64,000 nucleotides of DNA from contig OZ024740.1 in assembly GCA_964016885.1 (NCBI GenBank), positions 239,940,001 through 240,004,000 of the forward strand, given 5' to 3'. A program made the position numbers and the translations under genes. A model generated the notes under the pieces. It was not told the origin of the DNA. It saw only the letters and a program-made list of their open reading frames with translations, and did not search any database. This stretch comes from Eledone cirrhosa (lineage: Eukaryota). Below, piece after piece: positions 1,449-13,292 of this stretch. Each line of letters opens with the position of its first letter. Position 1 is the stretch's first letter.

Positions 1449-1563
1449 AGAGAGAGAGAGAGAAAGAGAGAGAGAGAGAGAGAGAGAGAGAGAGAGAGAG
1501 AGAGAGAGAGAGAGAGAGAGAGAGAGAGAGAGAGAGAACGAGGGAGATAGATAGATAGATAGA
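1449..1563. repeat. (GA)n then (GATA)n microsatellite; 1542-1563 is the left TSD copy of the Tx1 element
   Basis: Directly visible; GGGAGATAGATAGATAGATAGA recurs at 7366-7387. Confidence 0.9.
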
Positions 1564-1778
1564 TTTCTTTATTTACCATAAAGGCATAAAAAGAAGGGAC
1601 AAATACAAAGGGGGAGTTTACATATAATCGAGTAAAAAGGGTGTAACATGAAAATAATCGAAAATAACCTCAAAAGGGAGGGGACGTGATGGGGGTTGCA
1701 CACACCCCCGAAAAAGTGTGCAATCCTTTGCCCGGGGAGCACATGGAGAAGGTGTTCCCCTCTCCTTTACTTCTTTAC

Positions 1779-4700
1779 CTACAGGATGGTATACAGAGAA
1801 GGCCCATTTACACGAGCCATTCTCGCCACTATCACCCACCTTTCATAAAACTGCCTGTGGCCAAGCACCTCTCTCTCCATTCTTATCCTTCTTCCGAAGT
1901 GATATCGGAAGAAGTAGACCAGACTATGGCCAGAGAGGAAGTTGCCTGACCTCAGACCTTTCAATCGTGTCCACCAAACAACCTCTTTCAACATGGCTAT
2001 TACGCACAGAAAAACCGCCTTTGCTTCCTTTGTGAAGAGGGGAGGCGGTTTGATTGTCATCACGGACTCGGCGGTCAATTTAATCGGCGCCACCCGCGAC
2101 AGCAGTTGTTCGGCGTAGCCCCACAGATCAGCCACGCCCGGACATTGCACCAATGCGTGCGCCACGGTTTCTTCGTGACGCACGCATCTAGGGCAAATCT
2201 TTTTTGAGGGATCCCTGCCCGGGCGCCCGTGTCTGTAGAGCCTCTCTCGAACGGGTAGAGCCCCTCGGTAGCACTGCCAGGCCAGTGACTTCTGGAAGTT
2301 GTCCATTGGTCCTGGGCCGAAAGTCCTACCGAACAGGCTGGCCAGTTCGTCTTCTTCCATGTCCAGCGACTCTCCAAGGGTGTCATCGCCCCTGCTAGCC
2401 ACCAGCCCTCTATAGAATGATGAGGTGGATTCTCCACCGATGGCCCGGCCCGCTTGCCAGAGAGCCCTGAGCGCCTGAGCACACTCAGTGTGCCAGTCTC
2501 CCAGTTTTCCGGATCTTTGCTTGACCCAGGACTGTAGCTCGGTGAGTGAGACGAGTCTCGGAAAGGCTCGTTTCACGAACGGAGCCCACACCGGTTGACC
2601 AGTGAGGAATACCTGTAGGTGCCGTAGCCTTAATGCGTGCCTACGCATCATCAACCACGGCATCCCCAGCCCTCCTTTCGAAGGTTGTTGGCAGCAGATG
2701 GATCTTCTCACCATAGGAGGACGCTTCTTCCAAAGAAATTGGAAGAGCATGCGTTCCATGGTGGTGAGTGTTTCCTTAGGGCAAGGCACGACAGTCAGGC
2801 GGTAGTAAGTGACGGACGCTATGTAAATGTTCGCCACCTCCGCCCGGCCTTTTAGGGACAGCTTACACTTGGCCCATTTCTGGGTTAGTGCAAACACCTT
2901 GTTCGTAACCTCGTTCCAGTTCTTTTCCACCTGGAGGTCCGGTCCAAACCAGACCCCAAGCAACTTTACCGGGCCCTCCGTCCAGTGTCCGACGACACCG
3001 TCAGGAGGCATCGGTTTGCCTCTCCACGTTCCGAGTTGCAGCCCGATGGATTTTTCCCGGTTCAGTTTCGCTCCTGACAACCTTTCGTACTCCTCCAGTA
3101 AGGTACCGATCGCCTCGATCTCCGAGTCGGTTGATACCATTACTGTTACGTCATCGGCGTAGGCCGACACCGCTTTGCTCAATCCTGGTTCCAGGGGGAT
3201 ACCCTGCAACAACTCCAACTTCCTCAGTAAAGGCTCGAGAGTCAATACGTACAGAAGGGAGGAGAGAGGGCACCCCTGTCGAATGGATCGTGTGATTTCG
3301 AACGGCTTCGAAAGGTAGCCGTTCACCTTGATCCTAGAACAGATGTGGTTGCTATGTAGGGCAGTGATCCAGCCTCTGAAAACAGGACCGAACCCAGCCG
3401 CCGCTAGCACCGCATCCAGGTAACCATGGTCGACCCTATCGAAGGCCTTAGACTGATCCAAGTTGATCAGGGCCCCACCGAAGCCGGGTTTGTTGCCAAC
3501 CCTCTCTATGATGTATCGCATGAGGTGGAGGTTATCGTGAATGGACCTGGATGGGATAGCACATGTCTGCGCATCTCCCACCAGGCCACCCACGACAAGC
3601 GCCAACCTCTTTGCTAACACCTTGGCCAAAATCTTTAACTCTGTGTTTAGCAGGGTTATGGGCCGAAAATTATTTATACTATCCCCCTTGTTCTCGTCCT
3701 TCCTCACCAGCGTGACTACGCCCTTGGCTACAGAACAAGGAATTCTCCCGTTCTGCTGCCAATTGCAGTAGACCGCTTCGAGGAGTTCGGAGAAGAAGAC
3801 CGGCATTGCTAAATAAAGTTCGTAAGGTATACCATCGAGACCTGGAGATTTGCGTCTGCTGCATTGGCTCAGCGCATCTCCGATCTCATCAGCCGAGATT
3901 GGTCCCTCGCAGGACTCTGCCTCTTTGTTCGAGAGACGCGGCAGGCCGTCGAGGTATGGACCGAAATCCACGCCCCGGCCCGGACCCTCGCCTCCCCCGA
4001 ACAATCGGGCAAAGTGCTTTTGAAAGGCCTCGCACATCTGCTTAGGCTCCCGGATCACTCGTCCATCTTCGTCTTGCAACGACCGGATGGTGGATCGATT
4101 TCCACTTTTAGCTTCTGTCACGCGGGCCCATCCAACGGCTTTGGCCCCCTCATTACCTAGAGCACGTATTTTACTTCGAATGACGCAGCCTTCATGCTTT
4201 GCATCGAAAAACTGGTTCAAGGCCGTCCTCGATGCCAGCACTCTGGCCACATCTTCGCTCTTGATTGCCTCTTCTAATTTACCTGTTAATTCTTTCTCGT
4301 TTCTATTCCTATTGGCAGCTAACATCTTGCTATAACTTATTGATTCTGTTCTAATCTCTCTTTTGAGAGATGCCCACCATCGGTTGTTGACGATTGCACC
4401 CGTCAACCTCTCCTTAACTAATCTGCTAATCCGGTTTCTGTAAGTCTCTTTTGCCGGTAAAGACAAATTAAGTTTCCAGTAACCGGGACCCTGTCTATGT
4501 GTTTTCTCGAGATTGACCACGCAGGTCACTAATTTGTGATCCGTGTAGCCAACCGTGCGCATTTCTGGACAGCTTAATATGTCCCTATCCTTACTTCTAA
4601 CTAAGAATCTATCTAAGTACGATCTAGATTGACCACTGTGGTTTCTCCAAGTCCAGGTAGGCACAGTTGGAAAATCTAGTCGATATCTATCGACCAAGTT

Positions 4701-12958: not shown

Positions 12959-13194
12959 TTCTGTTAGACGATTGAAATTTTTTACACAAAATTTTTTTTT
13001 AAAACAGGTTTTTCACCTCTAGGAGGGGTAAAGATGAGCTGACCCACCGCCTGACAGTTCAGACGGAGGGTCAAGCTACACAATTGTATCAAAATTAAGT
13101 TTGAACTCACAAAATTTCCTCAATAAATTTGAACAAAACTTCTGTGCGAAGTGAATGACATCCACACTGTAGAACAGACGACAGCTAGATTATA

Positions 13195-13292
13195 TAGATA
13201 GATAGATAGATAGATAGATAGATAGATAGATAGATAGATAGATAGATAGATAGATAGATAGATAGATAGATAGATAGATAGATAGATAGATA
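13195..13292. repeat. (GATA)n microsatellite (Tx1 target tract)
   Basis: Directly visible. Confidence 0.95.

Follow-up and report, generated by a model that had tools for sequence, protein, structure and literature searches.

A young LINE family of Eledone cirrhosa inserted in fixed phase into (TATC/GATA)n repeats, seen from a head-to-tail pair of full-length copies

Fish and crocodilians have non-LTR retrotransposons of the Tx1 clade that are described as specific for the microsatellites (TC)n, (TTC)n, (TTCC)n and (TTTC)n (PMC4494074, PMC3812793), and tandem insertions of the Tx1-mobilized SINEU-3, which sandwich a target-site duplication (TSD), have been attributed to sequential insertion (PMC4494074). 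Other repeat-specific non-LTR elements are Waldo and Mino (ACAY, AC), TRAS and SART (TTAGG) and Dong (TAA) (PMC3812793, PMC7265360). For TRAS1, SART1, R1Bm and Tx1L, specificity has been described as set by the endonuclease, with a recognition window of about 10 bp (PMC1919474), whilst the gain and change of APE sequence specificity in LINEs are still described as poorly understood (PMC1919474, PMC3812793). In the octopod Octopus vulgaris, 421 insertions have been assigned to 13 L1-Tx1 families counted as recently active (PMC13282606, Table 1); the word 'target' does not occur in the main text of that paper.

The stretch of E. cirrhosa DNA analysed here (64,000 nt of contig OZ024740.1, referred to as the window) contains, within a (GATA)n microsatellite, a head-to-tail pair of full-length LINEs on the reverse strand (Table 1). 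ORF1 (626 aa) and ORF2 (1145 aa) were open in both copies. Over the 5,803 columns of their alignment, copy 1 and copy 2 were separated by 17 substitutions and three homopolymer indels of 3 nt. No poly(A) was present at the 3′ end of either copy. A 22-mer at 1542–1563 was repeated exactly at 7366–7387, leftward extension of the repeat being impossible, and the bases AAGGG (7361–7365), which are likely untemplated, lay between the 22-mer and the 5′ end of copy 1. The original prediction, made from these letters, had described two full-length copies with both ORFs open and few differences, no poly(A) tails and about five extra nucleotides at the 5′ junction of copy 1, all of which held.

Table 1. 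Features of the tandem pair (positions in the window; TSD, target-site duplication)
Feature	Position	Strand	Remarks
Copy 1 TSD, 3′ copy	1542..1561	-	20 nt, (TATC)4-TCCC on the element strand; exact repeat of 7366-7385
Copy 1, full-length LINE	1562..7360	-	230-nt 5′ UTR, ORF1, 33-nt spacer, ORF2, 217-nt 3′ UTR
Copy 1 3′ UTR terminus		-	AATAAAGAAATC, without poly(A)
Copy 1 ORF2, 1145 aa	1779..5216	-	APE endonuclease, reverse transcriptase, C-terminal zinc finger
Copy 1 ORF1, 626 aa	5250..7130	-	One CCHC knuckle near aa 311-325; predicted RNA-binding region upstream of the knuckle
Five extra bases, copy 1 5′ junction	7361..7365	-	CCCTT on the element strand
Copy 1 TSD, 5′ copy	7366..7385	-	Exact repeat
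Single TATC unit	7386..7389	-	Between the copy 2 3′ end and the copy 1 nick site
Copy 2, full-length	7390..13191	-	ORF2 7607-11044 and ORF1 11078-12958, both open; 9 private substitutions
AT extra bases and (TATC)25 host tract	13192..13293	-	5′ side of copy 2; contains the copy 2 TSD

Domain searches and alignment assigned to ORF2 an N-terminal APE endonuclease with its catalytic residues present, a reverse transcriptase (RT) and a C-terminal zinc finger, without RNase H (PF03372, E 5.8e-8; PF00078, E 5.8e-27; PF13966, E 7.9e-6, just under its cut-off). The best solved relative of ORF2 was human L1 ORF2p (E 1.5e-50 over aa 8–855), followed by R2 (E 2.4e-20), L1 and R2 being the sole solved representatives among the matches. 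A CCHC motif was visible in ORF1, which matched zf-CCHC and ZCCHC3 RNA-binding clusters in the Atlas (score 0.90–0.92) and Pfam only below the cut-off; its single-sequence fold prediction reached a pLDDT of 32. The type I ORF1 of the Tx1 clade has been described as an RRM with a CCHC knuckle (PMC5203782). TSDs and 5′ truncations were found, fitting the target-primed reverse transcription of the L1 group, and 27 of 39 loci anchored on the 3′ end were full length. The family to which the two copies belong (hereafter the GATA family) is a member of the L1 group of APE-type non-LTR retrotransposons; it shows target-sequence preference, a trait of the Tx1 clade, in which it is likely to be placed. 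The earlier assignment to an APE-type L1/Tx1-like element agrees with the three domains of ORF2 and with L1 ORF2p as closest solved relative. One named animal homologue was found, in Argonauta hians (61%), which points to a probable octopod host; no named Tx1 element was among the matches. Sequencing runs labelled as other organisms (X5, X6) contained pieces of 206–345 nt that matched window positions 1564–7800 with 0–1 differences at low depth; contamination, diet, a close relative or transfer would fit these pieces alike.

Whole-genome pattern counts identified at least 1,614 3′ ends of the GATA family (an end with G at +15 escapes the pattern); exact 5′ ends numbered 608, and reversed-pattern controls gave 0. 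NN-TATC followed in fixed phase after 1,441 of the 3′ ends (approximately 86–89%), compared with a background frequency of TATC of 0.4% per base in 200 kb of evenly spaced genome, where 93% of the units were isolated. NN followed by TATCT was read at each of 30 loci anchored on the 3′ end, and TATC repeats lay upstream in 29 of the 30 loci anchored on the 5′ end. The junction had the form element-AATAAAGAAA-T(C/A) followed by TATCT; the dinucleotide that follows AATAAAGAAA was TC in 54, TA in 45 and AA in one of the first 100 listed ends, two of which lay in (TC)n. About one in eight family ends had no TATC next, examples being ends in (TA)n, in (TC)n and at locus L100, where a precise junction was formed at a TATATTG target with just three bases able to pair. 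A run of A8 within 30 nt of the element end was found at three loci, one of which proved to be a genuine family copy ending in a run of A. The targeting of (GATA)n claimed in the original prediction, which had proposed a genome-wide tabulation of flanks, is thus supported.

TSDs were studied in a sample of 73 fetched loci, of which 60 were analysed, six with unresolved junctions and seven in tandem arrays having been excluded. At 28 of the 60 loci the TSD was bounded by unique sequence, with a median length of 19 nt and 25 of the 28 falling within 15–20 nt; extra bases, mostly 1–3, were present at 22 of these 28 bounded 5′ junctions. Since the target duplications are mostly 15–20 nt long, (TATC/GATA)n is the insertion target and not a tail. 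The two terminal bases of the element varied by subfamily, and they differed from the target base pair at seven loci (L072, L084, L090, L095, L107, L262 and L282). On this comparison, bases 1562–1563 (TC on the element strand) belong to the element and not to the target, from which it follows that the TSD of copy 1 is 20 nt (1542–1561 = 7366–7385), starting at TATC. The flanking 22-mer of the original prediction therefore stands as an exact repeat, whereas its reading as a 22-nt TSD is corrected, its last two nucleotides being variable T(C/A) of the element that mismatch the target elsewhere.

Reconstruction of the empty site succeeded at 53 of the 60 analysed loci. The first five nucleotides past the nick were TATCT in all 53; 36 of the 53 sites lay in runs of more than five units (57 of 1,669 background units did so) and five lay within single units. 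No repeat units had been added at the short targets L084, L090 and L101, the first of which (C3:70.66 Mb) is a single-unit target, TATCTAG, within SYLDR codons of the endonuclease of a related element. A bias of insertion toward one end of the tract, which had looked likely by eye, was dropped as not significant (21 observed compared with 16.4 expected of 41, z 1.6; KS p 0.28).

Of 58 full-length copies sampled, 33 kept both ORFs, and private substitutions were absent from 11 of 64 dispersed copies; because the sampled loci were picked for near identity to copy 1 (its subfamily), both the intactness and the age of the sample are biased towards young copies. The full-length share of all copies, calculated from the end counts, was at most 38%. 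Copy 1 was separated by 1–5 substitutions from 21 dispersed copies. These comparisons indicate a young and abundant family that is probably active, in line with the young, possibly active family of the original prediction.

The order of the two insertions in the window had been claimed to be readable from the TSD. This claim fails, because either insertion order leaves the same letters: insertion of copy 2 last, one unit upstream of the copy 1 TSD, would create a pure-repeat TSD of 15–21 nt and an identical sequence, and the limits of the copy 2 TSD cannot be set because it consists of pure repeat. Moreover, the spacer TSD belongs to the downstream copy in two other arrays (C4:57.36 Mb and C12:13.06 Mb), where that same copy predates its neighbour. 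Copy 2 was nevertheless probably inserted first. Among 107 copies it carried nine private substitutions, compared with one in copy 1 (p 0.021), counts that are approximate for nested neighbours (L250, L268) and may mislead if the source lineage is unsampled (C1:388.13 Mb); in addition, none of the scored copies (40 of 1,171 candidates) came closer than about two differences to a 311-nt stretch of copy 2. The insertion of copy 1 after copy 2, as originally proposed, is thus favoured by the private mutations, whilst the TSD alone gives no proof of it. The opposite order, with copy 1 as the earlier insertion and copy 2 added afterwards, one unit upstream of the copy 1 TSD, is unlikely in view of these counts. 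It nevertheless predicts the identical sequence, and upstream addition is proven in three other arrays (C3:127.25, C4:86.39 and C2:327.12 Mb), where the upstream TSD copies the junction of the neighbour, and favoured by age in three more (C4:57.36, C3:151.98 and C3:310.37 Mb).

The GATA family is, with high probability, a young, high-copy L1-group (likely Tx1) element that inserts in fixed phase in (TATC/GATA)n, likely through recognition by its APE endonuclease and priming at the same site. In the mechanism that we propose, the enzyme would nick the GATA strand at GATA^GATA, also reading about two upstream units, and the freed 3′-OH would prime cDNA synthesis exactly at the last base of the element. 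Read-through of the transcript into the donor flank would be expected because the poly(A) signal AATAAA lies just 6 nt before the element end; the (UAUC)n of that flank would then pair with the primer, which probably explains why the junction is precise and lacks a tail. No poly(A) trace of read-through RNA was found in genomic copies, apart from the one family copy with an A run. The second strand would be cut 15–20 nt downstream, without sequence preference. Tracts may be hit again because insertion leaves repeat on both sides, and repeated hits, from either side and by sister families, would build tandem and mixed arrays. The nick bond, the read-through and the pairing are all features that we infer from junction sequences.

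Pairing might also account for the specificity by itself, if a loosely specific endonuclease nicked widely and just those sites that pair with read-through (UAUC)n were primed. The invariant TATCT after the nick at rebuilt sites (53 of 53) and the position of AATAAA are compatible with this, and repeat-guided priming has been proposed for RTE elements (PMC6007223) and for SART1 (PMC7265360). We consider it improbable, since the likeness to the repeat extended to the upstream side of the nick, whereas pairing with the RNA is limited to the downstream side. Where a single unit followed the nick, the upstream 8 nt matched the repeat in 10 of 14 sites compared with 21 of 635 in the background (p 1e-11), and when seven paired bases were required the figures were 8 of 10 and 8 of 85, respectively; L100 also has its precise junction despite little pairing. 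The upstream repeat likeness points to protein recognition beyond RNA pairing.

The tandem arrangement itself is ordinary, as 23 head-to-tail junctions of the GATA family with short spacers, in 20 arrays, were found in the whole assembly (all were fetched). An origin of the window pair by unequal crossover or tandem duplication, or as two haplotypes assembled in series, is very unlikely, even though the window junction is known from the assembly alone and simple duplication seems to have produced another array in the same genome (L121 and L122, C1:348.92 Mb), whose copies are identical over 5,818 nt and have one 5′ junction in common. Such an origin is disfavoured because copy 1 is nearer to dispersed copies than to its neighbour (one substitution from L065, L067, L068 and L081 among 60 aligned full-length copies, 17 from copy 2) and because the 5′ junctions differ (CCCTT in copy 1, AT in copy 2); the spacer, moreover, contains non-repeat bases of the left flank. 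The pair is best interpreted as two independent insertions, so that growth of the array by repeated insertion and not by unequal crossover, as originally claimed, is upheld. At four other tandem pairs (L254/L255, L259/L260, L275/L276 and L119/L118) the copies differed in sequence and shared their 5′ junction letters. Such a pattern would be compatible with cutting of the second strand within the 5′ end of the neighbour and subsequent annealing of the new 5′ end, which is identical to it.

Although microsatellite tails end many LINEs (PMC6007223), the idea that (TCTA)n is the element's own tail after random insertion, or that random insertions survived only in microsatellites, can be set aside almost entirely, as the repeat is also present 5′ (29 of 30 loci), is duplicated within the TSD and gains no units at L084, L090 and L101, and the phase is fixed in copies just 1–5 substitutions old. 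A LINE with an RNA-added microsatellite tail (RTE, CR1 or L2 type) was rejected for the same reasons, the repeat lying in the TSD and not being lengthened at short targets.

Related families with other targets were found in the same genome. Family B targets (ATT)n: ATT was next to the 3′ end at 30 of 30 loci, mostly as (ATT)n, and several truncated and full-length copies had ATT also on the 5′ side, with TSDs (for example at L156 and L158). Its ORF2 is 67% identical to that of the GATA family and intact in L183, L185 and L188. The window itself holds a broken family B copy (about 31500–36223, forward strand), with ORF2 from 32756 interrupted by stops and frameshifts, which ends with AATAAAGAAA-AC in (ATT)n. 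At least four further families (73–88% identical) lie likewise in (TATC)n, and the 3′ end of another family was found within 300 nt of seven of 30 sampled 5′ ends. At about 16492–16600 of the window (reverse strand), the 3′ end of another TATC-targeting family adjoins a (TAGA)n tract. In family H (L230–L239; ORF2 75–80% identical) the element was located at CTCTC|TATATC in a degenerate minisatellite in nine of 10 loci, the tenth being without a 3′ end; the minisatellite has a period of about 35 or 70 nt by eye and lies inside a dispersed repeat. The 5′ junction of family H is a short inverted repeat that is nearly the same in all copies. Because of this constancy hitchhiking within the host repeat is possible, as is a target-derived 5′ sequence.

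The APE domain of the GATA family is 61% identical to that of family B and 75% to that of family H, and the alignment placed the differences in the beta-hairpin and in the loop that follows the third strand. A tree built from 21 C-terminal rows grouped the ATT families as a clade (95/95) but did not resolve how the TATC and minisatellite families branch at their base, so it gives no direction for the target switches. A wider reading combines several propositions: an undescribed octopod Tx1 lineage, active and with hundreds of intact copies, would carry the first (GATA)n-specific APE, would have undergone at least two target switches in one genome [(TATC)n, (ATT)n and the TATATC minisatellite, at 61–77% APE identity] and would use its poly(A) signal to let the donor repeat enter the RNA and prime the next insertion. 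We offer it tentatively, leaning slightly against all of its parts being right together.

Other features of the window were a 1.2-kb inverted repeat (47402–48615 and 49226–50435, 99.4% identical and about 600 nt apart), which is probably a young foldback or TIR element, a hAT transposase remnant in two ORFs (27627–29119, reverse strand; DUF4371 and a dimerization domain) and fragments of another RT element (38845–40853, forward strand; PF00078), which by motif we take to be a LINE of R2/R4 type.

The interest of the GATA family lies in its new target and in its close relatives with different targets. Known sequence-specific APE enzymes are far apart in sequence; the question of specificity becomes directly testable here because families with an intact ORF2 differ in target, share 61–77% of their endonuclease and differ at few loops. 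Tracts of (GATA)n are common in many animal genomes, and a GATA-specific integrating element could interest builders of site-directed insertion tools. In the host, with a genome of 3.0 Gb, approximately 1,600 family copies, together with the sister families, interrupt and duplicate tetranucleotide repeats.

A search of the literature, as opposed to repeat databases such as Repbase and Dfam, found no Tx1 element targeting (GATA)n or (TATC)n; provisionally, therefore, the target is regarded as new to the searched literature and the element itself as being of a known kind. Like Kibi, Koshi and the crocodilian Tx1 elements, it is APE-type, has two ORFs and inserts into microsatellites, and by analogy it would work as Kibi and Koshi do. 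Judged by target it would fall outside the Kibi/Koshi lineage, as its (TATC)n differs from their (TC)n, (TTC)n and (TTYC)n. Tx1L, Keno and Tx1-Mar with SINEU-3 are target-specific Tx1 elements too, directed to U2 genes or to a DNA transposon and not to a tetranucleotide repeat. The R1 clade includes Waldo, Mino, TRAS and SART, and SART1 keeps poly(A) at the junction, whereas the ORF2 of the GATA family is nearest to L1. Dong, a member of the R4 clade with a restriction-like endonuclease, has its TAA/ATT target in common with sister family B.
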